Below are positions 4,518 through 55,989 of a DNA stretch of 64,000 nt, piece by piece (within the stretch, counting starts at the first letter, position 1; the number at the start of each line of letters is the position of its first letter). Source of the DNA: Eledone cirrhosa (Eukaryota); assembly GCA_964016885.1 (NCBI GenBank), contig OZ024740.1, positions 323,020,001 through 323,084,000 on the forward strand. Reading direction: 5' to 3'. Made by a program: the position numbers and the translations under genes. The notes below the pieces were generated by a model. The model worked only from the letters and a program-made list of their open reading frames with translations. It ran no database searches and was not told the origin of the DNA.

Positions 4518-7500
4518 TTACATACACATACTCAGAGTAGGCCCATTCACTCGGGCCATTCTTGCTTCTCTCACCCATCTTTCAACAAAATGCTGGGAAG
4601 AGAGCACTTCCCTCTCTACTCTGATTTTCCTTTTCAAATGAAATTTGAAAAAGTCAATCAGGGCATCACCGAAGAGGTAAGTGCTCGTCTTCAGCCCTTT
4701 CAAACGTGTCCACCATACTATCTCTTTCGCCATGGCCACCAGACAGATAAAAACTGCCTGCCCTTCCCAGCTAAAGGAAGAGGGCGGGGCAATCCTCACG
4801 ATGGACTCAGATGATAGCTGGATCCGTCCTACACGCGACAGCAGGTGTTCGACATAAACCCACAAGTCAGCAATTTTCGGACACTGGACGAGTGCGTGCA
4901 GGACGGTTTCGTCGCCCTGCGCGCATCTCGGACATGCCCGGCTGACGGCATCTCCATGCCTGTAGAGTTTATCCCGAACTGGCAAGGCTCCTCGGTAGCA
5001 CTACCAGGCCAGAGATTTCTGGAAGTTGTCCATAGGTCCCGGCCCGAAAGTTCTTCCGAAGAGAATGGCTAGTAGATTTTCGTCGACGCCTAGAGTTTCC
5101 CCAAGTACGTCGTCGCTCTTCCCCTCCACTAATACTCTACAGAACGCCGAGGTGGAGTTTCCACTGATCACATTGCCCGATTGGTCGAGGGCTGTGAGCG
5201 CTTGAAGACATTCCAGTCTCCAGGCGCTCCCTCTCGGTCTTCGCTTGACCCAGGACTGCAGCTCCGTCAAGGAAACGAGCTGGGGAAATACGTGTCTAGC
5301 AAACGGCGACCACACCTGATCACCGTCGAGGAAGAGGTGGAGATGTCGTAGCCTGAGCACGTGTCTGCGCATCATCAGCCACAGCATGCCCATCCCTCCA
5401 CGTAGCGAGTGTTGACAGCAGATGGACCGCCTGACCATCGGAGCGCGTCCCTTCCACAAAAAGCGAAAGAGCAAACGCTCCAGCGCAGTCAGGCGGGGCT
5501 TAGGACAAGGTACGACGGTCAGGCGGTAGCAGATGACAGACGCGATGTACGCGTTAGCCACCTCCGCTCGACCTTTCAGGGATAGCTTGCTCTCCGCCCA
5601 TTTCTGGGTAAGAGAAGCCATCCTGCTCGTCACCTCGTCCCAGTTTTTGTCCGTCTGGAGGTCCGGACCGAACCAGACCCCTAGCAATTTAACCGGTCCG
5701 TCCGTCCAGCGTCCGACGACGCTGTTGGACGGCATGGACCTGCCTCTCCAGGTGCCGAGCTGCAGGCCCACTGACTTTTCCTGGTTGATCATTGCTCCTG
5801 TCACCGCTTCGTATTCTCTTAGTGTAGTGCCGATCGCCTCGATGTGTTTGGCGTTCGCAACCACTACGGTGATATCGTCCGCATATGCTGACACGGATCT
5901 TCCGCATCCTAGTTCGCGCGGGACGCCCCTCAACGTCTCCAGTTTGTGCAGTAATGGCTCGAGAGTCGATACGTACAAGAGGAAGGAGAGCGGACATCCT
6001 TGGCGGACCGAGCGGCGCATGATGTTGAACGGTTCCGAAAGGTGACCGTTCACTCTCACCACAGAGCAGATGTCGCTGTGCATGGCAGCGATCCAGCCTC
6101 TGAAGACTGGCCCAAAGCCAGCCGCCCTCAGGACTGCCGCTAGGTAACGATGGTTGACCCTATCGAAAGCTTTCGACTGATGTAAATTGATCAAGGACCC
6201 ACCCGTGCCAGGTTCCCTAGCTACACTCTCTACGATGTATCGCATGAGGTGGAGGTTGTCGTGGATTGATCTGTCGGGAATGGCGCATGTCTGCGCCTCT
6301 CCCACCAGACCACCAACGACAAGCGCCAACCTCTTTGCTAGCACCTTGGCCAAAATCTTGAACTCTGTGTTTAGCAGAGTTATGGGCCTGAAATTATCTA
6401 TGTTATCCCCTTTGTTCGGATCCTTTCTCAGCAGTGCCACCGCCCCTCGGCTCACAGAGCTGGGAATTCTCCCGTTCTGTTGCCAGTTGCAGTAGACGTC
6501 CGCCAAGAGGCCTCCGAACAAGTCTGGCATCTGTACGTAAAGTTCATAGGGCAGACCATCCAACCAGGCGATTTACCCCTTGTGCAGTCAGTCATTGCCT
6601 CCCGTACTTCAGCGGCTGTTATCGGCTTTTCGCAACACTCCGCCTCAGTGGCCGAGAGCCGCGCCAGTCCGTCGAGGTAGACACTAAAGTCCATCCCTCG
6701 ACCCAGCCCACCGCTGCTCCCGAACAGCTGAGCGAAGTGTCGCTGAAAAGCTTCACACATTTTCCCGGGATCGAGTAGCATGCGCCCGTCGTGGTCCACC
6801 AAAGACCGGATCGTGGCTTTGTTGCCACGACGCGCTTCCGCCACTCGGGCCCATTGAACGGCTTTCGTCCCCTCGTGTCTGAGAGCACGCACCCTAGCCC
6901 TGACAACACAGCCTTCGTGCTTTGCATTGAAGAATTCGTCAAGGGCCAATTTTGCCGCAAGCACGTCGTTCGCGATGCCTTTGCTAAGCGCCTCGTCTAA
7001 TTTTCTAACTAGTTCTCCCTCTGCTCTATTTTTCTCTATTGCTAAAGCCTTACTAAACCTAATGGATTCTATTCTAATCGCCCTTTTTAGAGCAAACCAC
7101 CACTTTTTGTTGACGATGGCCCCCGTCAACGCCCGCTTAACTAGTTCGCTAATCCGGTCTCTGTAGGCCTTGCGCGCTGGTAAGGACGCGTTTAGCTTCC
7201 AGTAGCCGGGACCTCGTCTATGAGGCCTATCTAAGTCAAGCACGCAGATCACGAATTTGCGGTCCGTGTAGCTGACTATCTTGAATTGTGGACAGCCTAT
7301 GCTAGACCTATCTATTTCCCTACCAAATACTCTATCTAGATATGATCTGCATGACCCTATGCGATTTGTCCAAGTCCACATTGGCACATTCGGGAAATCG
7401 AATCGGTACCTGTCAGACAGTTCAAAACGCCTGAGTAGGTTGGTGAGGCTCTTGCACCCTCCACCCCTATCCGCTAATCCCACACAGTCCGAGCGTGCAT

Positions 7501-7938
7501 CTAAGATCCCTTTCCAGTCGCCCACTAACACTAAAGAGAGGGGCGTTCCAAGAAAGGTCTCCAGACACCGGAAGAAATCAGGCCGCCCTGCTCCTGTCGG
7601 GGCATAGACGGCCACTAGCCTGAAAGCTTGCCCGTCTCCGCTGATCACGTCCAGCACCACCAACTTACCCTCTGGGTCCAGGAAGATGGCCCGTATGGTG
7701 AGATCCAAACCTCTCCTAAAAAGCACAGCAACTCCTCCCCCGATCCAGGACGGCTGGGAGATGCGTACACATCGTAGCCGCCGAAGATCGGTGCGAAGGC
7801 CCGTGCTTCGGAGATTCTGGTCTCGCTGATGACCACTACATCTATGTTTAGTGACCTGAGGTCGTTGAGCAGGTGACCCTGTTTCCATGACGACCCCAAG
7901 TCACGCCGATTTATGCTGCCTATTCTGAGTGAGGTCAT
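4518..7938 (-). pseudogene. Tx1 LINE ORF2: APE endonuclease, reverse transcriptase and C-terminal zf-RVT-like region, disrupted
   Basis: APE motifs (IGSIN, VVISET, LVGDW, SYLDRVF, YTDR), GPGYWKLN, RT motifs (FRPITLLN, KAFDRV, VRQGCPLS, AYADD) and CPRCAQGDETVLHALVQC. Split over four ORFs by frameshifts and stops. Confidence 0.93.
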
Positions 7939-7973
7939 GTTTAAAATGGAGTAGAAAAGATGGGAAAGACCAC

Positions 7974-10154
7974 TTACCGTACTTTTCGTAGAGGAAGGAT
8001 GGTTTCTCCATCCCTTTTCACTTGATCGTCTGGTGGAGGGACCGTTGAATCGTCCCTTCGGCTGCTCGTCGGCTCTTCTATGAGTATGTCCGAATATACT
8101 CTCCGGTTGAGAGTCCCTCCTTGGTCTCTGAAATCACCAACTGCGTTGGGGAATTTCGTTTTAATGTTTGTGTATTGTTTCTGTGCTATTTTTACCAGTC
8201 TTATGTTCGTTGGCGTTTTGATTGGGGCTGGTATTATGTAGTCGTGCTGTGAAATGTCTGTGTGTTCAATTATGTAAGTCATTAGTTTCTTGTTGTGTGT
8301 ATTTATTGCCGTGCATTTGTTTTTCTGGGGGTGGGGTGTGGTTCTGCTATTTTCTTGTCGTTGTTGCTGGGTGTGTGTGTTTTGTTGTTGTGTTTGCGAT
8401 GTTGGTGCTTGTGGTGGTGGTGTTGAAGGTGTTGTTGTTGTTGGCGGTGGGGTTGTCGTCGGTGGTGATGGTGGTGCTAGTGTGTGTCGTGATGATGTTG
8501 GTGATGTTGCTGCTGTGAGTCTCTTTGCAGTAGCCTTTTCCCTTTTTTAATTTCTTTCCTCCCTTTTCGAAGGCGACGATGCGCTGCTTCTGCGTGTGTG
8601 CCTTCTTGCGACCTTTTGCCATCCCTCTCCCACCTCACACTCCATGTTCGATTCTGTGAGGTCGGGGAGGGGTACCAGCTCCATTCTTTCACTTGTGGTT
8701 GTTGGTGATGTTTGCAGTGGAGTCTCTGTTGCAGCTGCATTTGGTATTACTGTTGTTGTTGTTAATACTTCCACTGCCGCTGCTGTTCTTGATTTCCGTG
8801 GCGTGGGTATGGGTGCCACGGACCTATCATTCCTGGTTGCTGCTTGTCCTGCTGCTGGTAGCCGTGGAGTCGGTTTCGGAAGGAGGGGGTTTTCTTCTTT
8901 CTCAGGGTCTTCTCGTTGCAGAAGGCTCTGAGGTGAGTCTTCAATCAACAACGTAAGCAATTCGGGTGTTTGCCCTCAACACTTATGGGCAGTTGAGTGC
9001 CGTTATCGAAGTCTATCACATCCGGGATAGCTTCGATGCACTCCTGGTTGGTTTGGATTAACATCTCAATGGAGGTGCCGACCCAATCTTCTCTTACTTT
9101 TTTCTGTACTTGCAGTACAGTTGTTTTGTCCTCGATTCCGACGAGGACAGACGCGACCAGCGAAGAAGGGGCTATCCCGGGGGGGACGTGGGTCAGTTTG
9201 ACCCTCACAATTTTTTGCTCGCAGTAGGAGGGCACCAACACCATTTCCTCGCTCCTTAGGGTCACTAAGGATTGAGCCTTTGCCTCCTGGGGTGTGGCAA
9301 AAAGCACGTCTACGGTGGCATATTTTTTTGCCTCGGGTGATATGCGTTTTCCGCTGCCACACAGACCCTAAGGCTTTTTGTATTTGAGCCTCTGTGGCTC
9401 TTTCAACCCTACGGGATTTTGTGCTTACTGTACGGTACGTGACCGTACAGTGCTGTTGGGTTTCGAAAAAATTTTCGGCTGCCTTGCAGATTGCTCGGTG
9501 TCCGGTTTTCGTCACCATCTTCTTCGCTTCCTGTAATTCCTCATTTGTTATGAGGATGGTTTCCAGGTTCTTTGCGATACCTGCAAACGAGATTGGTTTT
9601 TCTTTGCTGCTGTTGTTGTTGTTGTTGTTGTCGTCAGAGCTGCTGTTACTTTTGTTGTTGCTGCAGGTACTACGACTACTGCCGCCGCCGCTGTTGCTGT
9701 GGTTGTTGTTGTTGTTGCTGCTAATGCTGTTGTTGTTGCTGTTGCTGCTAATGCTGTTGTTATTTATGGTGCTGCTGATGCTGTTGCGGCTGCTACTGTT
9801 GTTTTCCTCGTTACTGTTGCTGCTGCTGCTGTTATTACGGCTGCTACTGCTATTATTCATGACGTCAGACGAATGAAATGGGTTTTCGTATTTACCGCAC
9901 ACCTTTTTCGTCGTTGTCGTCGTCGTGGAGAAATGTTCCATGTTTTGCACGTGATTTTGGAAACTATTTTTCTTTACTGGCGTCGCTTGCGAAAGAGAAG
10001 GGAGGGAGAGAGACACATTTAGAGAAGGGAGGGAGAGAGACACATTTAGAGAAGGGAGGGAGAGAGACGATCTTCTCTCTGCTGTAGTGAGGATTGAGGA
10101 AGAAGAATACGGAATGAGTGGGAGTGACTTGTGAAAATTCTTTTTCGTAGCCAT
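7974..10154 (-). pseudogene. Tx1 LINE ORF1 (gag-like nucleic-acid-binding protein), frameshifted and with a premature stop
   Basis: Starts MATKKN at 10154. N/S-rich low-complexity region, then SFAGIAK. Zinc knuckle CLRC*LKTHLRAFC is split by an in-frame TGA (ORFs 8945..9307 and 8762..8944 are contiguous in frame). Homologous to ORF1 of copy 2 (CFLCGETTHLRAFC). Confidence 0.85.
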
Positions 10155-10446
10155 GTTTTTTTTGGGGTTTAAAATAAATATTGGGCACAAAACCCCAATA
10201 AGCGGTTATTTAACCCCGAAGGGCCAAATAACGGGCAGGAAGACCCCTCTCACGAGGAGGAGGGTGTTTTTGTCTACAGTTTGGTTAAAGTTTTAAACAA
10301 TTTACAATTGTTATATCTGTCAAAATTTACAATACCTTACAGAGCCGAGCCTCCGTCAACCATGGCATTCAATAATAATAATAATAATGTTATAGCAAAT
10401 AAAGTCGTTTCATTGTTTTCTTTCTTACTTACATTATTCATTAAGT

Positions 10447-10624
10447 GTGGATTGGCAGTATCGGTAGAGGGTCGGACGCCATGCTTTCCAGCATAGTTAC
10501 GTCCCTTTACGATCTGAGTTCAAATCCCGCCGAGGTTGACTTTGCTTTTCATCCTTATGGGGTCGATAAAATAAAGTACCACTGGGTAATTGCTGGCCTT
10601 GTGCCTAAAGTAGAAACAATTATT
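10447..10624 (+). mobile_element. tRNA-derived SINE, family A
   Basis: A-box-like TGGCAGTATCGG, B-box GTTCAAATCC, body TTTCATCCTTAYGGGGTCGATAAAATAAAGTACC, tail GGCCTTGTGCCTAAAGTAGAAACAATTATT. 14-bp TSD ATTATTCATTAAGT. Confidence 0.92.
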
Positions 10625-18934: not shown

Positions 18935-19400
18935 TATGAACACTCTGCCTCACAACAGAATGTACTGAATCAATATCTTGACTGCCTCTCAACAGAATGT
19001 ATCGATAGAATGTATTGAATCGATATCTTGACTGTCTCACAACAGAATGTATCGATAGAATGTATTGAATCGATATCTTGACTGTCTCACAACAGAATGT
19101 ATTGAAACGATATCTTGACTGTCTCACAACAGAATGTGCTGTATCACAACTTCTTCACAATAAAGTGCACTGAATCTATATTTTAACTGCCTCACAACAT
19201 AATGTACTGAATTAATAATGCCTAGACTGCATTACAACAGAATGTACTCTATCAGCATTGCCTTACAACAGAATGTACTCGATAAAAACTATAACTGATC
19301 AATACCTTACCTGCCTTACAACAGAATGTACTGGACGAACGCTTTATCTGCCTCACAACATGTATTGGATGAGCACCTAGACTGCCTCACAACATACACG
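18935..19400. repeat. Minisatellite with 35/49-bp units
   Basis: Repeats of CTCACAACAGAATGTA(TCGATAGAATGTA)TTGAATCGATATCTTGACTGT that decay to the right. Confidence 0.9.
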
Positions 19401-34075: not shown

Positions 34076-34076
<1 letters not shown>

Positions 34077-37000
34077 AGTTGCATTTATCTTGCTTTATGT
34101 TCATACGAGTTATCACCGAGTCACAACCAGTGACCTCAAGAGACAACAAGGTCCGCCATGTTCAAGAAAGAACATACATACTCACACATGCATCTTTAGT
34201 GTTTAGACTTGTGATGTACTTATATTGACAGAATCTTCCTTAGTATATGGGCAGTTCCCATTAGTACTATCTTTTGTATTTCTCCTATACGCGGGTTTCC
34301 TGGGATTTGCGATAAGTAATCATTAGACCCCTTAGGTATCATTCCCAGAGCGCCTACAACCACTGGTATTGTTTTAGTTCTCAATTTCCACATTTTTCCA
34401 ATTTCTATCTCCAGGTCCTTATACTTGCTCAATTTTTCAAATGTTTTTATAGATACATTCTTGTCTATTGGAACAGACATATCAATTAGCAGGCATACCC
34501 TCTTTTTAAAGTCCTTCAATATTATATCAGGTCTATTTGTATCTATTTTTCGGTCTGTTTGGATGCTAAAGTTCCACAAGATTGAGATGTGATCTTTTTC
34601 AAGTATGGGAGGTGGTTGATGCTCCCACCAATTCTTTTGATGGGGCAGGTCAAAATGCTTACACATTATCCAATGTATGTATTGTGCAGCTCTGTCATGC
34701 CTGTTTAGGTATTCGGTTGGAGCTATAGGACTGCACATTGAAATTATATGGTCTCTGGTTGTTTTTTGCATACACGGCATAATGGGCTGCTTCCATTTTT
34801 TATTATGTTGGCTTGGTAATTTTTTGTTGGCAGACACTCATCTTGTGCTGATATAATCAGTCCTTCAGTCTCCGATTTCAGTCCAGAGGATGCCAACTAC
34901 TGATGGGTTAAAGTTTTGTCAACATCAGGATTGTTAGCTCGCTCTGGGTATTTTCCATACAGAGGCTTTTCTTGCCATTTCTTAGCCAATTTCTGTAGCA
35001 GTTCTTTCTTTGCAGTTACTTTTACCTGCTTTGCTTTTTCTGTGTTTTCCATTTCAGCAGTAAATGGGACTTCTGAAATTTGTAGTCCATTACTGTATCT
35101 TTGTGCATCTTTTGTAATGGAATATGATCTTTTGATGCTTTCGTGTTTCAAAACGAGTTTGATCATCCAATCATGTGATTCCCTTAGATATGTAGATAAT
35201 CCAATTGTTGCAGTTTTCAACGCAATGTCTAACTGGATTAACCCACGTCCTCCTTCTTTCCTAAGGAGATATATTCTATCTATATCTGCCTTAGGGTGAT
35301 GCATTCTGTGCATGGTTAAGAATTTTCGAATTTTTGTATCGAGCCTACGGATCTCTGTGATGACCAGTTGATGACATTGTAACTGTAGGTTACTACTGGT
35401 ATGGCAAGCGTGTTTATGGCATCGATCCTATTCCTTGCATTCAATTCCGTTCTTAAGATTGCTCTTACTCTGCGGTAACATTCCTTCCTTATCCTTTCCC
35501 TCATTGTCGAGTGCTTGATTCCGTCTCCTTCACAAACACCTAGATATTTGTAAGTTTTTTCTTGATCAAGTTCTCTTATCACGTTCCCCCTATCAAGATT
35601 AATGTCTGAACTCTTCAGCAGCTTTCCTCTGTTGAACGTTGCTTTGGCGCATTTATCTAGTCCAAACTCCATTTTAATGTCATCACTGAACTGCTCCACA
35701 GTGGATAATAGCCCTTGCAATTGTTCATCATTTTTTGCAAATAGTTTCAGGTCATCCATGTAGAACAGGTGATTAATGGTTTTGTCATAGACTTTATATC
35801 CATGTTTTGTTTCATTGAGCATTTTACTTAATGGTATAAGTGCGATGCAGAATAAAAGCGGCGATAAAGAGTCACCCTGAAAAATTCCACAATTAATATT
35901 AACTTCTCCAGCTTCCAGTGATTTTGTTTCACTATTCAAACGGAGTGTCGTTTTCCATGTCTTCATACTGAATGACAAAAACCTCCTGACAACGGGGGAT
36001 ATTTTGAAAATCTCTAAACATTTTTCAATCCAACTGTGTGGCAAGCTATCGAATGCTTTTTTATAATCTATCCAAGCAATCGATAGATTTTTGTGTCTAT
36101 TATGACAATCTTCCAGTATCATTTTGTTAACCAGAAGCTGATCCTTACAGCCATATGAGCCTCGTTTACACCCTTTCTGCTCAATGGGAAATAGGTCATT
36201 TGTTATCAGGTGGTCATATGTGTATTCAGTTAGGACTGATGTTAAAATTTTATACATTGTGGTCAAGCAAGTTATCGGTCTGTAATTTTTGCGATTGTTT
36301 GTCTCATCATTCTTCGGAAGCAGGAATGTAATGCCGTTAACTAGCCATGATGGTATCTTTTCTGGCTCCTTAACTATTTCATTGTAAAGTTGGGCTAACA
36401 GCTCATGAGACTCTGTGAAGGCATTTATCCAAAAGTTTTGTATTTTGTCTTTTCCTGGGGATTTCCATTTGCTGTTTTTTCTTAGAGCCAAGCGCAACTG
36501 TTCAACTGTTATATTTTCCCATATTTGTTCCTCAAGGTGAGCTGTATCTTTCATTTGTCTGTCTATCCATGGGGCATGTATGTTATGACCTTTTTCTTCG
36601 GCCCAGATCTTTTCCCAGAATTCTTGCACTTCCTCCTTGGGTGGTATTGATTTAGCAGTTATTGTTGACTTACCAATTTTTCTGTAGAAGTTTCTTTGGT
36701 TGTTTTTGAACATATTATTGTCCTTATAGAATCTAGATCGTTTTTCAAAGCGCCTTATACGAACAGCTTTGGCTGACACTTTTTGCTTGATTATTTCTAT
36801 CAGCATGTCTATGTCACATGTTAATTTTATACTGTACTTTTTTTTCAATTTTCTAAGTTTAGTTTGTTTAACATGTTCACCTACTTTATAGTTTGTTAAA
36901 ATTTCTATGTCAGATCGGAGAAGGTTTATTTGGCGATTGATGTTCTCTTGCCAAGTAGATTTCTTGTGGGAATTCCTTTGTTTTTTCATCTTCACTCCAC

Positions 37001-37960
37001 ATAAGTGAGTGGTGACTTTAGCCGATGCATAATAGAGATGATTTAAATCAGTAATGTTTAGTTTGTTTGTGATGATAATGTTTTTGAGAATTATGTTAGT
37101 CTTGTGTATTATCTTTTGGTTCTGTTTGGAGTTCTGGATCTTAGGGAGGGTGTCTCGTTGCGCCATGTCAGATTCTTTCATTTTCATCCATTCGATCATA
37201 ATTTCATCCTTCAAGTTGGCAAGTTCATTCTCATTCATTTCTTTATCATTTACGATCTCATTATTTTCATTTGGAGTTTCATCTTGAGCATGCACTCCCT
37301 CCACTTTTTCGATCCTTTCTTTAATTTGTTCTGTTGCCAGTGATTCCGCCCCAACCCTGGGATTCGAAGTGTTACAATTTACCTCGTTTTCACTGACACA
37401 TGTTTCATTTTTCCCTTCGCTGACTTTGTGCTAATAGCTTGATCAGATCAATTTCTATATCAGTTAGTAACTTTTTTCTTACAATATTTCTTCGTATATT
37501 GGCTAGTTTGTTACTGTCAATATAGCCTCTGTTTTCGGGATGTTTCTTTTTCCAGTTGATATATGTCTGTTCTGTATTCGCTGTATTTGATGGGTAGTAC
37601 ATGGCAGTGTAGAAAGCCTCAAGGACTTCTTTATTATCTTCCCTTGACCATTTCTCTATCTTTTTCTTTGGATTTCTTGGTGGTGAGCATGGAGGGCCAA
37701 CAGTAGGAGTATTCCGGTTATGGGAGGTCTCCAGCTCCGAAGTGATGGGAAGGTTTGAACCATTAGCTGATTTTTCGACCCCAGTCTGGTTCCTCTCTGA
37801 GGGACGCGGCCCTTTTTTACCCGGGTGACGGCCGATCCGGTATGAGATTTTATCATTAGACATTTACTATATTTTGTCGCGTTTTATCCTTATCCGCCAA
37901 GGGGTAATCATTTCGTGTTACCACTTCTAGAACGAGTGTCAACCAAGACCATTATTCAAC
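34076..37960 (-). mobile_element. R4/Dong-clade RLE non-LTR retrotransposon (element A), full length, decayed
   Basis: Single long RT-zinc finger-RLE reading frame broken into four pieces. Flanked on both sides by (TAA)n on the element strand (34027-34075 and 37961-38003), the known target of Dong elements. Confidence 0.92.
34220..37863 (-). pseudogene. Dong/R4 ORF (RT plus restriction-like endonuclease), frameshifted
   Basis: KWSREDNKEVLEAFY N-terminal motif, WKSPGKDKI, YRPITCL, WIDYKKAFDS, GIFQGDSLSP, LFYMDDLKLF, RHD, RPDIILKD..LIDMSVP and EKLSKYKDL. Confidence 0.92.
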
Positions 37961-38003: not shown

Positions 38004-41000
38004 CCTTGAATCTCAGTCATTGATGTTGGTTAACTGGAAAGTCCGTTGGATTGAATATCAAGCCACTACCTGCAGCCTCAGATATTCAGGACGTATCGGA
38101 GGGTTCTTGCTGTTCCAAGCAAGCATGCCTTTTGAAGCGTTCCAAAAAGCGTGAAGGGGCCGATTTTCTTTAACCATCCCTGGAAACCTTTGGAGATAGT
38201 CCCCAGTGCGCCTATGACAATCGGGATCACTTTGACTTCATGGCAGTTCCAAATCCTTTTCACCTCCCACTTTAGGTCCTGGTTAATTTTCTCCCTCTCC
38301 TTCTCTTGCACTCTCGTGTCGAACGGGCAGGCCACATCCACAATCAGGCACGATCTTTTTTCTTTGTCCACAACCACCAGGTCAGGTCTATTGTGCTCCA
38401 GTTTTTTGTCCGTCTGTATCCTAAAATCCCACAGCACCTTCACCTGACTGTTCTCCATCACCGCCTCTGGCCTATGCTCATACCATTTCTCAGAATGTGG
38501 TAGATTGTTTACTTTGCACAGGTGCCAGTGGATCACCCTGCCCATCACATCGTGTCTCCAGCCCTTATAGTGGGTCTGGGCTAGGTGTTTACACTCGGAC
38601 ACAATGTGAGCCACAGTCTACTCTCTCTCTCCACAGATCCTGCACAGTGGGCTAGCCTCCTCCTTGTAGATATGGTGCTTCAACCACTTCGTTTTGAGGG
38701 CCTGCTCCTGCGCAGCCATTAGCATTCCTTCTGTAGCCTTTTTGAGGTCTCCTCTTCTCAACCAGTTCCATGTCTGTGGATCTCTAAATTCAGTTTTCTC
38801 AAAGAAGGTACTATGAAGGGATTTTCCCTTAAGGCTGCTCTTCCTCCTTGATGTTATTTCCTCCTTGGATATCCCCTGGCCTACTGTCCCCTCCTTCAGT
38901 ACAGCTCTGAGCATTGGCTCCTTACTATAGGTCACGTATTTGTATAGGTTGTTTTTCTCCATCTGAACACAGTCCTCTATGCTGATAAGACCTCTTCCAC
39001 CCTCAGATCTCCTTAGGTAGAGTCTATCGACATCACTCCTCTTGTGGAACATGTTGTAGATAGTCAATAGCTTCCTAGTCTTCCTATCCATTTCTTTTTG
39101 TTCAGCAACATTCCATCTCAGAATTCCCGCACTGTACCTAATAATAGACACAGCTCGGGAATTTACTGCGCTTATGGCATTTCTGCTGTTCAGATGTGAC
39201 TTCAATACGCTCCTTACTCTCCGAATGTATTCAGTTCTTAACAATTCCTTCATTTTTTTGTTCTTTATGCCATCAGCCTCCAGAACGCCCAAATACTTGT
39301 ATCCTTCCTCAGAGTCAATTTCCTTTATCATCTCACCTGTTGGTATCTGGATCCCGTTACTTCTGCTCAACCTACCCCTCTTCATCACAATGACTCCACA
39401 TTTACCAATACCAAACTGCATACATATATCACTGCTGAAAATACGGACAGTGTCAACAAGCACATCCAACTCCTTCTCACTTTTCCCGAAGAGCTTAAGA
39501 TCGTCCATGAAGAGGAGGTGATTGATGGTAAGCTCTCCCCTTCCCAACTTGTATCCTGCTCTCACTTTTCGCAGCATAATGGTCAAGGGCATCAGGGTAA
39601 GGACAAACAACAGAGGGGACAGGCTATCTCCCTGGAAGATACCTCTCTTGATCTTCACGCTTCCCAAGGATACTCCAGTTGATGTCAACTCTGTCTCCCA
39701 GGACCCCATACTCCTGTCCAGCAACTGTCTGATGTTATCTGCCACCCTGAAGATCTCCAGGCTTTTGGTGATCCAGGAATGAGGCACCATGTCAAATGCC
39801 TTTCTGTAGTCTATCCATCCCATGGCAAGATCAGTGTGTCTCCTCCTGCAATTCCCCATTACCATCTTATCAATAAGCAACTGGTCCTTTGTACCACGTG
39901 ACTTCTTTCGGCATCCTTTCTGTTCGTCCGGTAACAAGTTGTTTGTGTGGAGGTGATGGTAGATTTCCTCAGACACAATGCTCGTCAACAGTTTCCACAT
40001 TACGGGCAGACATGTGATAGGTCTATAGTTGGTAACATCATTACCCTTGATTCGGTCTTTCATTATCAGAACTGTGGTACCTTTTGTCAACCACTCTGGC
40101 ACCTCACCCGACACCAAGCAGTCATTGAACATGGCCGTCAGCTTCGGGTGGAGGGATGTTAAATGTTTAATCCAATACCCCTGCACACCATCTGGGCCTG
40201 GTGATTTCCAGTTGGTTAGTTTTTTGGCTTGCCCCTTAAGAGTTTCAACTGTGATACTCAAATCAGTCTGTTGTTGTGCCTGCTCACCGATCTCCCTCTG
40301 TACTGTCTCAATCCACCCTGCCTGGGCATTGTGTCTAACATCCTGCTCCCATATTCCTCTCCAGAATGTTTTAGCTTGTTCCGCCCCAGGGATCAAGTCG
40401 TTGCCTCTTTCTTTCCCCTCAAGCTGTCCAAACAGCATCTTCTGGTTGTTGTCGAACATGCGGTTCTGTTTATACTGACTGACTCTGTTCTCGTATCGCC
40501 TGATTTTGGCACTCTTTGCTACAATGCGTTGCTTCAATTCCTCTATGATAATATTTAGCTTTTTACTCCTAGTTTTGTATTTTATTTCCAGTCTATTTTT
40601 AGTGCCTATGTTTTTTAGTGTCCCATTCAGTAGTGACTCAAGCTTTCCTATGTCATTTCTCATTTCCCCGATTTGCCCACTCAGTCGCTTCTTCCACCAC
40701 GGCTCTGCTCTTTCTTGTCTGTTGTTTCCTCTCGCTTTTATACCAAGTAGTTTCCTCACCGTATTTGCTGTTGCTTTGAGGATATTGTTGCACTGGTGAA
40801 GATTCCTCGCCTCAAGGTATGGGATGACTTTGTTTACCTTAGCTGTTGTTTCTTTTAACTTTTTCCTGTCTACAAATCTTAGGTTCATAGGTCTCCCACT
40901 ATCATTGTTCAACTCATCTACCACTAAATTTAGGATGTCAACCGAATCTTGTCCTAGCCCGTCAGCATTCATCTCCTCAGTGGCCGTATCTCTGTTCCAG

Positions 41001-41580
41001 GTATTATTTATCTCAGTATTCAGATCATTGTCTGCTTCGGGTGGTTCCTCCGTTCTCAGGACCTCCTCACCTTCATTTCCCACCGGCTCGCTTGTCTGGC
41101 ATACTACACCCGCCATCTCCAAGCCATTCTCTCTGCTCAGTTCCTCCAGTTCCAGCTCGCTTATCCACCCATTAGTTCTTATTACCCGAGCCTGCCCGGC
41201 CAATTTTTGTTCATCTAATTTAAATAAACCAATCTCGTTCCAGATGTTATGCATCCGTCTCCTGTAGCCCCTCTCCTTGGGGTTACTTTTCAGGTAGCAT
41301 TGCATAACAGTTCTATTCAATTCTTTCGTCCAGTTGGTTCTGGCCCCTTTCCTTCTTCTTCTTCCTCCAACATCAGCAGTATTTGGTTGACAGTCAGGTT
41401 CCTGCTGCTGAGCCAGGGGGCACCTGTTGGGTGAGAGTCTGTCACATGACGTTCTAGTCTCCATTTCACCGTTATTCGAACTGTTTATGTTCGATATTTA
41501 AACACTCTTATCGAGGATTGGCGAATGTATGTTTACATAGCCATCTGTGGATCCGCCATCCCACTTGGCCCTTGTGTGGC
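38004..41580 (-). mobile_element. R4/Dong-clade RLE non-LTR retrotransposon (element B), near intact
   Basis: Its 3' (TAA)n tail directly abuts the 5' end of element A. The 5' boundary is approximate. Confidence 0.92.
38078..41464 (-). pseudogene. Dong/R4 ORF, about 1128 codons, with one in-frame TAG
   Basis: A 948-aa ORF (GIFQGDSLSP, LFMDDLKLF) ends CRICGERE* and continues in frame as TVAHIVSEC...RHD...RPDLVVVD..IVDVACP. Confidence 0.94.
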
Positions 41581-42523: not shown

Positions 42524-42566
<43 letters not shown>

Positions 42567-42777
42567 GACGAAAGTGGATGTACGTTTTTTGAAGCTCCGT
42601 GAGTAAGCAATTTTTTGAGGATTAATTGTGGAGAATTGTTTATTTTTTGTACCGCTGAAGCATTATAAGACATTCATTTGTATCCTGTGAAGGAATAACT
42701 CATAATATTTGGGCCTTTTGGCCCAAATATTTGAACTTTATTTTGGAAAAATAATAATTTTTTTTTCTCAAAAAAAC

Positions 42778-44695
42778 ATGGCGGAGCCACGCCCCCTAGA
42801 GGCGGGTCTGCTGTCGTGCAACGGCGACTTGAGCGTTGAGAGGAGAGGTGGGGCGAGGAGCGCCACCAGCACGAGTGTGAGCAGCGACAGTGCCAGCACC
42901 AACGGGCCGAGCGGCGCGGAAGGTGGTAACAGCGACAACACCAACACCAACAAGCCGAACAGCGCAGAAGGTGGTAATAGCGAGAGCACCAACAAAACGA
43001 ACAGCACAGAGAGTAATAGTAGCGACAGCAGCAGCACCAACAAGGCCAACAGCACAGAAGGTAACCACAACACAGGGGAGAACAACAACAGCAATAGCAG
43101 CAGCAACACCAACAAGAACAACAACAGTGACAACACCAACAAGAACACTTTCGCTGCTGTGGCAGCGGCTAAAAGGAGACCATGCTACAGCATCGACTTA
43201 ACCAACAGAGAGGAAAAGTTGGCCCAGGCCTGGAAAATCATAAATCAAGAGCAGACCTGGGCAAACTTAAATGTCCCGGCAGAAGCCATTGCGGCAGTGG
43301 AAAAAAGAACGGTGCATTTCAGATGCATCTCAGTAGAGACAAAGAGGGCAGCGATAATCGCCCAAGCTGATATAGAAGCCGCACTGAAATACATCAGAGA
43401 GGACACAGACTTCATAGAGAGGGGCAGGCAATACGGCACCGTTTCGGTGCTGTTCAAGTCTGAAGCCCTCGCTGTGAAGCATTCAATGACCCCTTGCAAA
43501 ACCAGCAAGGTCATAATGTACCCCTCCCACATGGGAAAACGAATAGCACGTGTGCGCATTCCCAGGATTCCACCAGGACTTGATATGTGGTGGCTCCTGG
43601 GTTGCGTAATCGTGGAAGGAACGGATACAGTCCCGGTAGAGGCAACGAGAACTGCCAGGGACGACTGGTCCGGAGTTGATCTGGAGATACTGCTCCAAAT
43701 CAGACCCGAAAACGTAAAAGCAATCCCGGACCACATCCGCCTCCAAAACGGGAGGGTGTTGCATATAATGACTGAGGGCAAAAGGCCGCATTGTTTCCTT
43801 TGTGGGGAAACGACACACTTGCGAGCCTTCTGTCCTCAACTGCCGAAAAGCGCAAGGGGTCGAAAGATTCCACTGCTGGCGACGCCGGGACAAGGACCAC
43901 CAGCAACACCGTCAACAATGGAACCACCAAAATTGCACACCCAGGGGGGAAACGAGGAAAGCTCTCCCATTCCCCCCCCCCCCCCCCAAAAAAAAATACA
44001 CACACGAACAAGAACATAAACACTCACTCAGACACAAACACGCTCACAGCCACAGACCCCTCATCCTCCAGCAGTGAAGATGAGGGAAAACCAAAGTCCA
44101 CCAAAATACAAAAAACAAAACACAAAAAAAAAAGAAATCCACAAAGCACAAACACCCCCACAAAAAAAATACACACACCACCCACACAAACATTTTCCCC
44201 ACAGCATCACCAACACAACCACCAAAATCCCCCAAACGCAAACAAGCTAAACAGACACAAGAACAAATAGACACACAAACATCAGAAACTACAGACACCC
44301 CACCCACATCAAACGCAGACACAATAGAAACAACACTAACAAAGCTATCACCACCACAATCACACGAACAAATAAAACCCGAGCAGCAAAACATTAAAAA
44401 CTTCGTGCTTGCCAGAAGGGCCAACAAGGAATTGATGGCCCATGTAGCACGAAGCACAAACATCGAAAAAGAGGGGGAAACATTTGAAGCGAGCACATTT
44501 CGCGTACCAGATAATTTGCTTCTGATGCGAATGTCGCTCGCTTCATACAAAGAAATTCGAAAGAGCTTTCCTCGGGATGTGGGAACCCCGAACGTAAAAC
44601 CCACTTCAAGACTATTAAAGGGGTTCCCAAAAGAAACCCCACAAACCATGGAGGTCGAACCACCCGACCTTCACAAGACCCCGGAAGGTAAGTAA
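42778..44695 (+). pseudogene. Tx1 LINE ORF1, frameshifted (at least near the C/A homopolymers at about 43972-43995)
   Basis: MAEPRP start in AAAAAACATGG context, N/S-rich repeats, TFAAVAA and CFLCGETTHLRAFC knuckle. The last segment ends PEGK* just before ORF2. Confidence 0.85.
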
Positions 44696-44724
44696 ACCTT
44701 TCCTCTCCCATTCATCCTGCCAGC

Positions 44725-47251
44725 ATGGCCATAAGAGTAGGAAGTTTAAATGTTCGTGGCCTGGGGTCGCCCTGGAAGCAAGGTCACTTGCTCAACGACC
44801 TCAGGTCACTAGGAATGGATGTAATTGCCATCAGCGAGACCAGAATTTCCGACACACGCGCACTGGCGCCGATTTTCGACGATTATCAGATCTTTGCATC
44901 TGTTAGTCGGCCGGGAATGGGAGGTGGAGGGGCTGTGCTGTTTAGGAAATGTCTGGATCTCGAGGTAAGGTCAATCTTCCGGGATCCTGACGGAAAGTTG
45001 GTGGTCCTGGACGTGAGCAATAGCGAAGGTGGTGCCTTTAGACTGGTGGCCGTCTACGCCCCTACTGGGGCCGGTCGGCCGGACTTCTTTAGGCGCCTGG
45101 AAAACTTTCTGCTTACGTCTCGCCCTTTACTGTTAATAGGGGATTGGAATGGCATCTTAGAAGCACGCTGGGATTGTGTGGGAGTATCTGATAGGAGCGG
45201 GGGGTGCAAAAGCCTCAAGTACCTGATCAGCCAGTTTCAACTGTCTGACAGGTACCGACTAGATTTCCCTAATGCGCCAGTATGGACCTGGACCAATCGC
45301 ATAGGGTCATCTAGATCGTACATAGATAGGATTTTCATTAGGAAAAGAGATAGAAATAGTGTAGGATGTCCACATTTTAAAACGGTTGCCTATTCAGATC
45401 ACAAGCTTGTGATCTGTATGGTCGACCTAGATAAGACACGTAGGTTAGGACCTAGCTATTGGAAGCTAAACATGTCGTTTCCGGCACGTAAAGCTTACAG
45501 GAACCGGGTCAACAACTTAGTTAAGCAAAAGTTGACAGGGGGGGGGGGGTTGTCAACAACAGGTGGTGGGGGGCTCTCAAAAGAGAGATTAGAGCAACCT
45601 CGATAGGATTTAGCAAAGAAGTAGCAATAGAGAAAAATAGAAAGGAGGAGGGTCTGATAGCTAAGTTAGACGAGGCTATTTGTAGTGGCATTGCAACAGA
45701 CGTGCTAGCGGCGAGAATGGCACTAGACCATTTCTTCAATGCGAAACACGAAGGTTGCATTGTCAGAGCTAAGGCGCGTGCTCTGAGGAACGAGGGAACC
45801 AAAGCTGCCCGATGGGCTCGCTTTGCAGAGACGCAGCGTGGAAATAAAACCACAATTCGGTCTTTGACGGATCGAGATGGACACGAACTGAGCGATTCCA
45901 AGCAGATGTGTGAGGCCTTTCGCCAGCACTTTGCTCGATTGTTCGGGAGGATGGGTGAGTCGGAGATGGCGGCGGACTTCAGTCCCTACCTCGACGGCTT
46001 GCCACGCCTCTCGACGGCCGACGCTGAGCGCTGCGAAGAGCCGATAACATCAGCCGAAATTCAGGACGCCCTTGTCGGCTGCTCGGGGTTTGGTTCGGAC
46101 CAGACCTCCAGGTGGATAAGAATTGGGACGAGGTGACGAGCAGGATAGCCAACCTCACCCAGAAATGGGCTGAGAGAAAGCTATCACTGAAAGGGCGGGC
46201 GGAGGTGGCGAACGCGTACATCGCGTCCGTCATCTACTACCGCCTGACCGTCGTGCCTTGCCCCCGTCCACGCCTCGCCAATTTGGAACGGCTCTTTTTC
46301 AAATTTTTGTGGAGGGGACGGGTCCCGTTGGTGAGGCGGTCCATCTGCTGCCAGCACCCTCTTCGTGGAGGGCTGGGCATGCCGTGGCTAATGATGCGCA
46401 GACATGCGCTGAGGCTGCGACATCTCCAGATATTTTGCCTAAACGGTGAACAGGTGTGGTCGCCGTTTGTTAGACGGGCCTTTCCGCAGCTCATCTCTTT
46501 GACTGAGCTGCAGTCCTGGGTCAAGAAGAGACCGAGACTGGGCGACTGGCATCTGGAATGTTGCCAGGCGCTCACTGCACTCTGCAAGGTGGGCAATGCG
46601 GTCAGTGGAACTTCCACTCAAGATTTCTATAGAGGATTAGTGGAGGGCAAGTGCGATGACGTACTAGGAGAGGCTCTGGGCGTCAACGAAGTAGAACTGA
46701 CCAGTATGTTCCGGAGGACTTTCGAGCCGGGGACGATGGATAACTTCCAGAAATCCCTCGCTTGGCAGTGCTACCGGGGGGCGCTGCCGGTTCGGGATAA
46801 ACTCTACAGGCACGGAAGTGCTGTCAGACGAACCTGCCCGAGATGCGCGCAGAGCGACGAAACCGTTCTGCACGCACTCGTCCAGTGTCCGTGCATTGCT
46901 GACTTGTGGGGTTATGTCGAACAGCTATTGTCGCGTGTAGAACGGATCCGGCTATCGTCCGAGTCCATAGTGAAGATTGACCCGCCGCCTTCTTTTGGTC
47001 AGGAAGGGCAGGCAATTTTCCTCTGCCTGGTGGCAGTAGCGAAAGAGGTTGCATGGTGGACCAGGTTGAAAGGACTGAAGACAGACACTTTTCTCTTCGG
47101 CCAATCCCTCATCAACTTCTTCAAGTTTCACTTGGAAAGGAAGGTGAGGGTGGAGAGAGAAGTGCTGCCCCCCAGTACATTTACTGAAAGGTGGGTGAAT
47201 GTGGCGAGAATGGCCCGCGTGAGTGGGCCTACTCTGATCATGCGCCTGTAG
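44725..47251 (+). pseudogene. Tx1 LINE ORF2 lacking the RT domain
   Basis: APE motifs (VGSLNVRG, AISET, IGDWN, SYIDRIF, YSDH). Frameshift at the G run near 45540. DALVGCSG is joined to GVWFGPD-coding DNA at about 46085. The C-terminal 379 aa are open and include CPRCAQSDETVLHALVQC. Confidence 0.92.
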
Positions 47252-47522
47252 GCTGGTGAATTCGAGAAGGAGAGGGGTGCCCTTCCCGGGTGCCCTAGGA
47301 GCGTCGGGTGGCTCAGGACTGGTGGGGTGCTTGAGTCAACCCTGGGTGGTGATCCCTCTTATTGGGGAACTTTCATTGTTGTATTTTTATTGTTATTTTG
47401 TTTTTTTGTTATTTATACTTACTCGATCTCTATGTAAACCCCCACTGTCCCTGTCTATTGTGTTGTCCCCTATATGTCGGCCCTTGTGGCCAATAAATGA
47501 AATCATTATTATTATTATTATT

Positions 47523-47647
47523 TATATCTTCATTGTTAAATTAGTCTTGCACTTTTACTCGACCTTATTGTAAACCCCACTGTCCCTGTCTTTGTATTGT
47601 CTCCTACATGTCGGCCCTTGTGGCTAATAAATGAAATCATTATTATT
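47523..47647 (+). mobile_element. Second, 5'-truncated 3' end of the same Tx1 family
   Basis: TGTAAACCCCACTGTCCCTGTC...GGCCCTTGTGGCTAATAAATGAAATCATTATTATT repeats 47432-47513 with several substitutions. Confidence 0.88.
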
Positions 47648-47812
47648 GCTTTGACGCATAGAGTTACGGCCCTTGCCATTCTGAGTTCAAATCCCGCCGA
47701 GGTTAACTTTTTCGTTCATCCTTACGGGGTCGATAAAATAAAGTACCAGTAATGCACTGGGATAATTGCTGGCCTTGTGCCAATAGCAGAAACAATTATT
47801 ATTATTATTATT
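47648..47812 (+). mobile_element. SINE family A, 5'-truncated, directly after the Tx1 tail
   Basis: B box, body, tail and (ATT)n are present. Confidence 0.9.
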
Positions 47813-48484: not shown

Positions 48485-49240
48485 AACCCTAAACCTAAAC
48501 TTAACCCTAACCCTAACCATAAACCAAACATACCCTTACATCTAACACTAAGCCAAACCCTAACGCTAACCCTAACGCTAACCCTAAAACTAACTCTAAA
48601 CCTAACCGTAACACTAACACTAATATTATGTCAAAACCGAAACTAACACTAACTCTAAACCTAACCCTAAACCTAACCCTAACCATAAACCCCAAACCTA
48701 ACCCTAACCATAAACATAGCCTTAACCCTAACCCTGACCGAAACATAACCTTAACCCTACTCCTAACCCTAACCCTGACACCAATGCTAATCCTATCCCT
48801 AACTCTAACCCTTACCTTAACCCTAACCCTAACCATAACCATCAACTTAACCTTAACGCTAACCCCTAATCCTAAACCTAACCCTAACCCCAAAACTTAC
48901 CCTAACCCTAGCACTAGCTCTTATCCTAAACCTACCCTAACCCTAACCTTAACCCTAACGCTATCCCTAACCTTAACCCTAATCCCCAACCCTAACACTA
49001 ACCTAACTGTATCCCTAACCCTAACACTATCCCTAACCCTAACCACAGTGCCTAGCCTAACACGCCCCCTAACTCTCAACCTGACACCAATACTAACCCA
49101 AACTCTAACTCAGACCAACCCCATCAACCCTAACTCTAACCCTCACTCTAACTCTAACTCTAACCCTACCGCTACCGCCAATACTAACCCTAACCCAACC
49201 CGATATCAGCCAACCCAACCTCACCTAACCCTAATGCTAA
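48485..49240 (-). repeat. Degenerate interstitial telomere-like (TTAGGG)n tract
   Basis: About 750 bp of TAACCC units with many variants (TAACCA, TAACTC, TAACAC, TAAACC). Confidence 0.92.
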
Positions 49241-50849: not shown

Positions 50850-51637
50850 TGGGGGCGGTGGATTGGCAATATTGGCTGGGCGTCGGACAACATGCTTTGC
50901 GACATAGAGTTACGGCTCTTTACATGCTGAGTTCAAATCCCGCCAAGGTTAGCTTAGCTATTCATCCTTACGGGGTTGATAAATAAGGCACCAGTGATGC
51001 ACTGGGGTGGATTTAATATACTTTGCCCCTCCCCTTCAAATTGCTGACCTTGTGCCTAATGTAGAAACAATTATTACAAGCTGGGGGTGGTGTATTGTCA
51101 GAATGATTAAAGTGTCGAACAAAACACTTTGCAATATTTGTTCTGGCGCTTTACTTTCTGAGTCTACTCCCACCGAGGACGACTTTACCTTTCATCCTCT
51201 TAGGGTTTATAGAGTACAGGTGCTGATATAATCTACTTCCCTCCTTCCCTTGTGTCTGAATTAGAAACTATTATGCGGTGGATTGGCAGTATCGGTAGAG
51301 AGTCGGACGCCATGCTTTCCAGCATAGTTACGTCCCTTAACGATCTGAGTTCAAATCTCGCTGAGGTTGACTTTGCCTTTCATCCTTACGGGGTCGATAA
51401 AATAAAGTACCAGTAATGAACTGAGTAATTGCTGGCCTTGTGCCTAAAGTAGAAACAATTATTATTAAAGTCGGACGCCATGCTTTGCAGCAAAGAGTTA
51501 CGGCCCTTTATGGTCTGAGTTCAAATCCCGCCGAGGTTAACTTTGTCTTTCATCCTTACGGGGTCGATAAAATAAAGTACCAGTAATACACTGGAATACA
51601 CTGGAATAATTGCTGCCCTTGTGCCAAACAATTATTA
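50850..51637 (+). mobile_element. Array of four head-to-tail SINE family A copies
   Basis: Copies at about 50850-51076, 51080-51274 (diverged), 51275-51467 and 51468-51637, each starting at or just after the previous ATTATT tail. Confidence 0.9.
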
Positions 51638-54344: not shown

Positions 54345-54881
54345 ATAATAACAATATGGTTTCTGATTTAGGCACAAGGCCAGCAATTTGGGGGGAGGGG
54401 AAAGTCGATTAAATCGACCCTAGTGCGTGACTGGTACTATATTTTATCGACCCCGTAAGGATGAAAGGCAAAGTTAACCTCGGCAACATTTGAACTCAGA
54501 ACGTAAAGGGCCGTAACTCTATGCGGTAAAGCCTATTCTCCACGCTCTACCGACACTACTACCCTAACAATAACAATAATTCTTTCTAAAATTGTCGCAA
54601 GGCCAGCAATTTGGGGGAGGGGAAAGTCGATTACATTGACTTCCAGTACACAACGGGTAGTTTATTTTCTCCAACCTGGGAAACAATAGTAACTGTTTTT
54701 ACTTTTGGCACAAGGCCAGCAATTATCCCAGTGTATTACTGGTACTTTATTTTATTGATCCTGTAAGGATGAAAGGCAAAGTTAACCTCGACGGGATTTG
54801 AACTGAGACCATAGAGGGCCGTAACTCTTTGCTGCAAAGCATGGCGTCAGACCCTCTACCGATACTGCCAATCCACCACCC
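54345..54881 (-). mobile_element. Cluster of three SINE family A copies or fragments
   Basis: Reverse-complement tails (GCACAAGGCCAGCAAT-like) at about 54371, 54596 and 54708, with body and B box in two copies. Confidence 0.88.
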
Positions 54882-54966
54882 TGGGAAACTATAATAGTGA
54901 TAATGATAATGATAATTTGTTTTATTTGCCCAAAGGGCATCAGATGGAGAAGTATGATGCATTCCG

Positions 54967-55122
54967 GTATAGCTGTCTATGGAATACTCAGCTATAGCTG
55001 AATACTCAGGTATAGCTGTCTATGGAATACTCAGCTATAGCTGAATACTCAGCTATAGCTGTCTATGGAATACTCAGCTATAGCTGAATACTCAGGTATA
55101 GCTGTCTATAGAATACTTAGCT
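54967..55122. repeat. Minisatellite built from TATAGCTG(TCTATG)GAATACTCAG sub-units
   Basis: About 3.5 copies of a roughly 43-bp higher-order unit. Confidence 0.9.
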
Positions 55123-55989
55123 ACTTACATTATCATACAAGGGCTGTAGCTGTAATTCAAAATGTCAGCCTTGTCACACACGATATCACGTTGAGTCTTT
55201 CTGGGAATTACGTTGATAATACAAATATCTGTGGTGTATCAAATGCTTTACATAATAATAATGTATTTATTAGCCACACAGGGGTCACATTAAGGAAACA
55301 TTAAAGATGGTACAGGACGATACAGTATGTGTGTTTTTTTGCGGGAGGGGGGGGGGGAATACAATTTATAACAGAGAATAAGAAAAATAAACATAAAAAA
55401 ACAAACATAAAATATTCCCCAAAGGTGAGGAGACTCCAAAGGTCACTCGTGGAGAAATCCCACTAAAACACACGATCACCCTGTCTGCTAGAGCAAGATG
55501 GACTGTACCTGTAATTGAAATTGTCAGCCTTGTCTCACCCAATGTCACGTTGAGTCTTTCTGAGAATTATGTTGATAATACAAATACCTGTGGAGTATCC
55601 AATAACTTGAATAATTATACAAGGTGGACTCTACCTGTAATTCAAAACTGCTACCTTGTCCCAAACCGTGTCACGCTAAATCTCCCAGAGTGTTTACATT
55701 AAGGCTACACATCTGTGAAATATTCAGCTATTTACTGTATAATACACGGGGAAGTCTAACTGCAATTCAAACGTGCAATATGGAATCCTGTCACATATTG
55801 TGTCACTTTGATTCTTCCTGAGAACGACATTAAGGGTTAGTTTCCATTTCTGTGGAATGGCTTGTGGAATGTTTAGTCTTTCGTGCGTTGATTTCATGAA
55901 CAGATTGTTCCGTTGATCCAACAACTGGATCATTTGACGGCGGAACCGACAGAGGTCCAACGCTCATATACACAACACTATACATGAGG

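Follow-up and report, generated by a model that had tools for sequence, protein, structure and literature searches.

Partnerships between SINEs and LINEs are known in kind, as are SINEs driven by Tx1 elements, so the surprise of a further candidate is limited. For the SINEU families, Kojima (2015) inferred from target preference and overlapping age that the mover is Tx1-Mar (PMC4494074). In the available text of PMC3472496, L1 tails account for 3 of the 58 tail-sharing SINEs surveyed, in maize and Chlamydomonas. As in the case described here, these pairs (ZmSINE2/3 with LINE1-1_ZM, SINEX-3_CR with L1-1_CR) join an L1-superfamily LINE to a SINE with a common 3' end (PMC3472496, PMC3747384). The maize tail also has, like the one predicted here, a hairpin with a conserved loop, a variable stem and compensatory changes, which was read as stringent recognition (PMC3472496). 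The mechanistic model used here comes from zebrafish ZfL2-1 and ZfL2-2, whose ORF2 protein (ORF2p) binds the cognate 3' stem-loop (PMC4176376). "TX1" in the available text of that paper is the name of a protein construct and not a retroelement. In bivalves, SINE and LINE tails are 72-95% alike over 35-61 bp (PMC11481361).

SINEs make up 11.6% of the Octopus vulgaris genome (PMC13282606) and have been described as an octopus-specific expansion (PMC8967140). As in the genome studied here, the octopus tRNA-Deu and tRNA-Core SINEs are very abundant beside active L1-Tx1, CR1, RTE and Dong-R4 LINEs (PMC8967140, PMC13282606). In this study, we analysed a stretch of 64,000 nucleotides from the octopod Eledone cirrhosa, hereafter named the window, together with loci retrieved from the genome (designated L followed by a number).

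Organization of the stack and its repeat families

The preliminary description of the window reported a LINE end, a second LINE end and a SINE stacked head to tail, and quoted four element ends. All four were found as written: the end of LINE copy 2 at 47479-47504, followed by (ATT)6; the end of LINE copy 1 at 4276-4298 on the minus strand; SINE A ends, for example at 20298 and 11637; and the tail of the SINE copy starting at 47648, at 47771-47794, also followed by (ATT)6. The stack itself, spanning 47479-47812, is made of a LINE end, a 118-bp LINE stub and a truncated SINE of the tRNA type. What had been called the "second LINE end" lies at about 47521-47638 and belongs, as a 5'-truncated copy, to a sister subfamily whose right arm is GGCT; it matches the 3' UTR of the copies in L099, L108 and L126 and carries an 8-nt deletion. 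In the SINE of the stack, the B box GTTCAAATC lies at 47685-47693 and the tail TGGC-CTTGT-GCCA at 47770-47782. The main features of the window are as follows.

4276-10370, minus strand: LINE copy 1, family 1, tail AACC-CTTGT-GGTT, with RVT_1 and zf-RVT
10445-10618, plus strand: SINE A copy of almost full length, whose clean 14-bp target duplication starts ATTATT
42524-42566, plus strand: (ATT)n tract upstream of LINE copy 2
42567-47504, plus strand: LINE copy 2, L1/Tx1-like, young subfamily of family 2, beginning at the family 5' end
47479-47504, plus strand: LINE 3' tail with predicted hairpin GGCC-CTTGT-GGCC, AATAAA and TGAAATC, in this order
47505-47522, plus strand: (ATT)6 spacer, target or target duplication, with boundaries ambiguous within the pure repeat
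47521-47638, plus strand: 5'-truncated stub of the sister LINE subfamily (GGCC-CTTGT-GGCT), fitting the 3' UTR of longer GGCT-type copies
47639-47647, plus strand: (ATT)3 spacer
47648-47794, plus strand: 5'-truncated tRNA-type SINE, short form A, 81% identical to the copy at 10445
47795-47812, plus strand: (ATT)6 after the SINE
54358-54557, minus strand: SINE of the long form B, with the extra ~35 nt
55264-55470, minus strand: 3' remnant of the older Tx1-like family 3, with the 6-nt loop CTGTGT

Twenty-two copies of the heptamer CCTTGTG were counted in the window, whereas shuffled sequence had 5.3 +/- 2.5 (0 of 100 shuffles reached 22), and 14 of the 22 occurrences are SINE or LINE tails when their contexts are read by eye. 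A SINE start on the same strand was found within 70 nt after 23 of 87 LINE tails and 9 of 30 SINE tails, compared with 6 of 300 random positions (plus 3 with a SINE on the other strand) and 1 of 28 CR1 tails. Same-strand stacking therefore exceeds chance. Elsewhere in the window, at 50850-51630, five SINE-like copies of forms A and B lie in tandem, head to tail, with short ATT spacers. Many young LINE copies in the genome form head-to-tail arrays of different families with spacers of 5-9 ATT. SINE-like and LINE-tail-like sequence was also present in sequencing runs of three organisms (four runs), in which no piece spans the stack and which were left out of the evidence below.

The SINE had been called abundant, and genome-wide it has 141,845 exact tails, a lower bound, as only exact matches to one 26-nt pattern were counted; about 50 tails occur in 390 kb of evenly spaced genome sample. 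The element is 183-220 nt long and exists as a short form A and a long form B with a common tail, form B carrying an extra ~35 nt before it. Motifs resembling the A and B boxes were seen in two of the three copies scanned, and an internal T4 in none of the three. By its length, its A- and B-box-like motifs and its duplications, the element fits a tRNA-type SINE (SINE2). ARAGORN and Rfam gave no tRNA or RNA-family match in the window, SINE heads included. The body may resemble the Deu/Nin domain.

LINE copy 2 is frameshifted in both ORF1 and ORF2 and has an 892-bp deletion across the RT region near 46080; endonuclease and zf-RVT Pfam matches are found in its window frames. It is 98.6% and 99.9% identical to the 5,825-bp copy in L062, which is intact (ORF1 of 636 aa, ORF2 of 1139 aa), and its last 256 bp are 100% identical in 40 of 40 scored genome matches. 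Copy 2 is a member of a young subfamily, in which 35 of the 38 copies retrieved reach the family 5' end. The L062 ORF2 contains Exo_endo_phos, RVT_1 and zf-RVT Pfam domains, that is an APE endonuclease, a reverse transcriptase (RT) and a zinc-binding domain. Its best PDB match is human L1 ORF2p (E=1.6e-56; R2, E=1.9e-22), and it shares 70% identity with an Argonauta hians protein and 53% with a cuttlefish protein. Elements of the L1 superfamily show 5' truncation and target-site duplications in the range of about 7-20 bp. The LINE belongs to this superfamily by its ORF2 domain order, its 14-19-bp duplications and its 5' truncation.

ORF1 of the L062 copy had no Pfam match; it carries a CCHC knuckle (CX2CX4HX4C) at residue 339, and its Atlas neighbours are zf-CCHC and ZCCHC3 RNA-binding domains, with scores of 0.89-0.92 that serve as a lead only. 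ORF1 proteins with RRM or CCHC knuckles have been linked to the Tx1 clade (PMC5203782). Because ORF1 is of the CCHC-knuckle type and not Transposase_22, the LINE was assigned as Tx1-like. None of the 240 homologues among the matches listed bears a Tx1 or L1 name, and the label rests on domain anatomy and target preference rather than on a tree with named Tx1, Kibi, Koshi and Keno references.

At least four families carry the common tail motif. The stem arms are GGCC/GGCC or GGCT in family 2, AACC/GGTT in family 1, AGCC/GGCC or GGCT in family 4 and AGCC/GGCT, around the 6-nt loop, in family 3. LINE copy 1 (family 1) is flanked by ATT repeats on both sides and is 76% identical to family 2 over ORF2. 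Exact LINE tails number 16,510 genome-wide for one pattern, and the tail or a near variant accompanies 27 of the best 30 zf-RVT hits; of the other three, the L429 copy has a partly deleted tail, the L422 copy is 3'-truncated and one has no tail in range. The LINE stub in L242 has an inverted 5' segment, as in twin priming. LINE copies in L067, L074, L078, L082, L085, L236 and L237 share their surroundings, a stretch of simple repeat lying beyond an RTE-like 3' end (L085), which points to a hot spot for repeated insertion within another repeat.

SINE A copies differ from the column majority by a median of 6.6% (10th-90th percentile 3.3-12%, 40 copies) and form B copies by 11% (10 copies). The values for LINE clusters are 3.8% (35 copies) and 1.7% (8 copies), and up to 7%; family 3 copies are ~80% identical to the window remnant. 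The age ranges of SINE and LINE overlap. Since SINE copies are older on average than those of the commonest LINE clusters, much of the copying may be the work of older families.

Other repeats share this environment; their CR1-like, RTE-like and R4/Dong-like labels are putative assignments from RT motifs. Two R4/Dong-like RT elements lie in tandem on the minus strand at 34076-37900 and 38004-41500, both embedded in ATT tracts and terminated by (AAT)n, and oriented opposite to the Tx1-like LINE and SINE. The 3' ends of R4/Dong-like elements often abut Tx1-like tails, tail to tail (L075, L255, L259). A young CR1-like family (L168-L197, L373-L402) has a 945-aa frame, its own 3' hairpin and an (ATT)n tail, and two SINE insertions (L186, L191) were found in its ATTATT-containing 3' region. 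The window also contains a degenerate, interstitial telomere-like (AACCCT)n array of ~120 units (48485-49201) and minisatellites at 18945-19263 (37-50 bp) and 54966-55123 (43 bp).

Insertion sites and target duplications

Duplications scoring at least 10 were found for 68 of 141 SINE copies, compared with 21 of 421 mismatched pairs. Since a reference-free search over 7 kb gave many chance hits, only junction-anchored cases were counted as clean; these had to start at the base adjoining the core but were not required to begin with ATT. Under this rule, clean exact duplications with a median of 15.5 bp were obtained at 50 of 157 SINE ends, and the other 107 gave none. Forty-seven of the 50 start with ATTAT, and a C or T precedes 45, against 987 of 1652 background sites (p=5e-6). 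Background counts exclude the L151 satellite, a repeat of ~280 bp with internal inverted similarity that fills a 10-kb stretch (G000:C7:30000001-30010000).

For the LINE, 30 copies were selected for a short ATT run, 15 of them with a defined 5' end. Seven of these 15 truncated copies showed clean duplications of 14-19 bp (8 gave none), and in all seven ATTAT starts at the first base after the core, with a C or T before it. Further LINE duplications were found in L071 (15 bp) and L250 (14 bp). The CR1a family, which also ends in (ATT)n, showed such a duplication in 0 of 22 truncated copies (p=6e-4). We discarded three apparent CR1a duplications and one LINE case (L344), all located in tandem repeats at a distance from the junction. 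The duplications of full-length LINE copies are unreadable because these copies lie in pure ATT.

Some duplications extend over both elements. In L250 and in L083/L025, one duplicated sequence occurs three times: ahead of the LINE, at the LINE-SINE junction and behind the SINE. The stretch retrieved for L250 ends 8 nt into the third occurrence. In L346 and L349, the duplication of a LINE stub runs into the start of a SINE.

The comparison of target logos and duplication lengths, which had been proposed as a check, gave a mixed answer. The two elements agree in having duplications of 12-19 bp that start at Y|ATTAT; they differ in tract length. Exactly ATTATT followed by a base other than A was found after 34,444 of the 141,845 SINE tails (24%) and after 648 of the 16,510 LINE tails (3.9%). 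In a random sample, 26 of 29 SINE ends had a run of one or two ATT, whereas full-length young LINE copies had 4-28 ATT upstream and 2-16 downstream in 35 of 35 cases. Because LINE tracts are long and SINE runs short, the common element is the predicted nick site Y|ATTAT and not a long microsatellite. The longer LINE tracts may come from a longer (AUU)n in the LINE RNA or from a stronger preference for tracts. With at least four ATT upstream in 35 of 35 copies and Y|ATTAT in seven of seven clean duplications, the LINE has a target-sequence preference of the Tx1 type.

Young LINEs (L061-L097) have at least four ATT upstream even where only two or three lie downstream, and the L083 copy combines a non-repeat duplication with about four extra ATT at its 5' end. 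The L083 pattern suggests that the LINE RNA starts with (AUU)n.

A common 3' tail and a candidate partnership

We compared the last 25 nt of three SINE copies with LINE ends by end-anchored alignment against 1000 shuffles. Tx1-like families 2, 3 and 4 gave z values of 3.2-5.6 (p 0.001-0.004), and family 1, cut in register, 3.4-4.7. The closest tail was that of family 4, with a best ungapped match of 21/30 (SINE B). The rival ends, taken as one sample from the window and the retrieved loci, were two CR1-like, four RTE-like and two R4-like (n=8), with no L2, Nimb, I, Hero or R2 end among them. In 23 of 24 comparisons with these non-Tx1 ends p exceeded 0.1, the exception being RTE3 (p=0.008 with one of the three SINE copies); at 40 and 60 nt, RTE3 reached p=0.038 once and R4a p=0.016 once. 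Thus none of the eight CR1-, RTE- and R4-like ends fits the SINE tail better, a better fit to another clade being what the preliminary description had set against its own proposal. Non-SINE ATTATT sites in a random sample scored at least 20 in 3 of 415 cases, and the four sites listed with scores of at least 18 resemble decayed SINE or Tx1-like tails. Farther upstream, SINE B and family 1 showed no similarity across the adjoining 75 nt (p=0.77, family 1 being cut 4 nt out of register). The two elements have the common 3' tail sequence expected of a stringent pair, in a short form (best 21/30).

A SINE body was found with 255 of 261 SINE-type tails in 1.9 Mb, the remaining six being stubs or noise, and no LINE with a SINE-type stem was found among the 261. 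A hybrid pattern, combining a LINE-type tail with the SINE-type GC arm, had 80 hits genome-wide; those of the hits that were clustered proved to be singletons, SINEs or known families altered at a single base, and no new LINE was among them.

The common part of the tail is predicted to form a 4-bp hairpin with a CTTGT loop. In ten natural ends compared, the C-G pair closing the loop is invariant, the second pair is C-G in the six LINE rows and G-C in the four SINE rows, the third is G-C or A-U, and the outer pair is A-U, U-A, G-C, G-U or, in three rows, unpaired. In total, 37 of 40 cells are paired and three of the four pairs are changed on both sides; none of 500 shuffles scored as high and slid controls were at most 55% paired, a covariation score that is not a probability because the rows number only ten and are related to each other. 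The folding energy of the hairpin was not above that of shuffles (z -1.1 to +0.5). In the SINE, the right arm GCCT, which keeps only three stem pairs, is commoner than GCCA (70 copies vs 43). An apparent compensatory SINE variant, GAC/GTC, was present in a single copy and was dropped. The SINE is without AATAAA, yet its loop remains at an unchanged distance from the end and the stem still pairs, and in the LINEs the hairpin persists while 3' UTRs differ between families upstream.

The common 3' motif of 25-30 bases and the same type of insertion site make it likely that the SINE is copied by the LINE enzyme. With a probability of roughly 0.7, we propose that the SINE is copied by a Tx1-like ORF2 protein predicted to recognise a short hairpin whose loop is CUUGU. 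This agrees with the core of the original proposal of a SINE-LINE partnership, which is supported by the tail specificity, the covarying hairpin and the common insertion signature. Its qualifier "(ATT)n-specific" suits the LINE better than the SINE, because SINE sites mostly hold one or two ATT.

The proposed copying would proceed as follows. RNA polymerase III would read the SINE from its A and B boxes and, as there is no internal T4 stop, the transcript would run into the flank, placing AUUAU just after GAAACA in the RNA. ORF2p may then bind the hairpin in trans, on the model of L2 stem-loop binding (PMC4176376), and the endonuclease would nick the bottom strand at 5'-ATAAT/R-3', a site deduced from the junctions. 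The freed 3' end could pair with AUUAU in the RNA and prime reverse transcription; this pairing would explain why the duplication begins directly after the element core. A second cut 12-19 nt away would duplicate the site, leaving the footprint observed. Every insertion leaves a pair of Y|ATT sites, which later LINE and SINE copies probably use again; this would produce head-to-tail stacks such as the one in the window.

The same LINE could also act through relaxed recognition, with only AUUAU pairing needed and the hairpin being either a relic of tail capture or a signal for LINE 3'-end processing beside AATAAA. The weak folding and the three-pair stem of the commoner SINE variant are in line with this, as are the description of most L1-clade LINEs as relaxed (PMC3472496) and the 3' end of SINEU-1, common to no crocodilian LINE in the available text of PMC4494074. 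However, a relic or a processing signal accords poorly with a SINE that lost AATAAA but kept loop, distance and pairing through a second-pair change on both sides, or with a hairpin that persists at 27 of the best 30 zf-RVT hits while LINE 3' UTRs diverge, and we regard relaxed recognition as rather unlikely. It is improbable, too, that the true partner is an unseen or extinct LINE (another L1-type lineage, L2, Nimb or I), the likeness to Tx1-like tails then reflecting ancestry or convergence. About 2 Mb of 3 Gb were sampled and family searches covered the best 150 of 13,078-118,943 candidates, which leaves room for such a LINE; SINE and LINE stems do differ at the second pair, and bivalve SINEs use CR1, CR1-Zenon, L2 and Nimb (PMC11481361). 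Still, neither the 261 SINE-type tails nor the hybrid-pattern hits clustered revealed one, and the Tx1-like lineage already gives the exact footprint.

A mover among the other ATT-associated elements, either the ATT-tailed CR1 family or the R4/Dong-like elements, is largely refuted and has a very small probability. CR1a is young, ends in (ATT)n and has 2,926 exact tails, and two RT elements of the restriction-endonuclease type lie in ATT tracts in the window; but at 25 nt the SINE tail aligns with neither of these ends, CR1a lacks the ATT-starting duplications in its 22 copies, and the R4-like sense strand ends in (AAT)n in the opposite orientation. Returning to copying by the Tx1-like enzyme, a broader version has about even odds in our judgement: an animal Tx1-type LINE would use stringent stem-loop recognition, and a 25-30-nt CUUGU-loop tail plus a 5-base target would be all that one tRNA SINE needed to multiply to hundreds of thousands of copies in octopods, with each of the two elements creating targets for the other.

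Comparison with described systems

The preliminary description knew of no account of this pairing. This holds for the pairing itself, of which, as of an ATT-specific Tx1, no account was found in the literature searched (Repbase and most subscription papers being outside its coverage); a Tx1-SINE pairing as such is known from SINEU and Tx1-Mar (PMC4494074). No common 3' hairpin was found reported for an animal Tx1 in the same literature. The LINE clades observed here (L1/Tx1-, CR1-, RTE- and R4/Dong-like) match those given for Octopus vulgaris in the available text of PMC13282606. OK, OR1 and OR2 are among the named octopus tRNA SINEs. The available text of PMC8967140 and PMC13282606 names no LINE partner for octopus tRNA SINEs, and that of PMC11481361, PMC5786205, PMC4824008, PMC4758252, PMC3747384, PMC3531059, PMC5753468 and PMC11203168 gives no Tx1 partner for an octopus SINE. 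In seven supplementary files of PMC3472496, a set that excludes file 1 (which may be the pair table), there is no entry for octopus, OR1, OR2 or squid.

If true, the pairing would name a driver of the octopus SINE expansion, and the question is directly testable because the candidate enzyme donor has intact, near-identical young copies. Stringent hairpin recognition in the L1 superfamily, described in a monocot lineage and an alga (PMC3472496), would then reach an animal Tx1-type lineage, and ATT would join the Tx1 targets given in the literature searched. The tail is so short that the usual BLAST screens for partners may miss such pairs.

In this respect, bivalve SINE-LINE tails are longer and more alike than the 25-30-nt stretch found here (PMC11481361). 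The maize and Chlamydomonas pairs likewise differ from the present one in their plant and algal hosts and their common stretch of ~50-80 nt (PMC3472496, PMC3747384), against an animal host, a stretch of ~25-30 nt and a sequence-specific target here. ZfL2-1 and ZfL2-2 belong to the L2 clade and their recognition was shown experimentally (PMC4176376), whereas ours is predicted from sequence alone. Kibi, Koshi and the crocodilian (TTCC)n/(TTTC)n Tx1 families are, like the LINE described here, inserted in microsatellites (PMC4494074). Unlike these families, the present LINE uses an ATT unit and also short Y|ATTAT sites with clean duplications.

SINEU and Tx1-Mar resemble the present case in that a Tx1-clade mover was inferred through a common target and overlapping age, in their tandem insertion, and in some SINE families having a weaker target preference than the LINE (PMC4494074). 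They differ in the U1/U2 heads, the Mariner target and, in the available text of the same paper, the lack of a LINE with the SINEU-1 3' end. The SINE described here has instead a tRNA-type head, a Y|ATTAT target and a predicted 3' hairpin in common with its candidate LINE partner.
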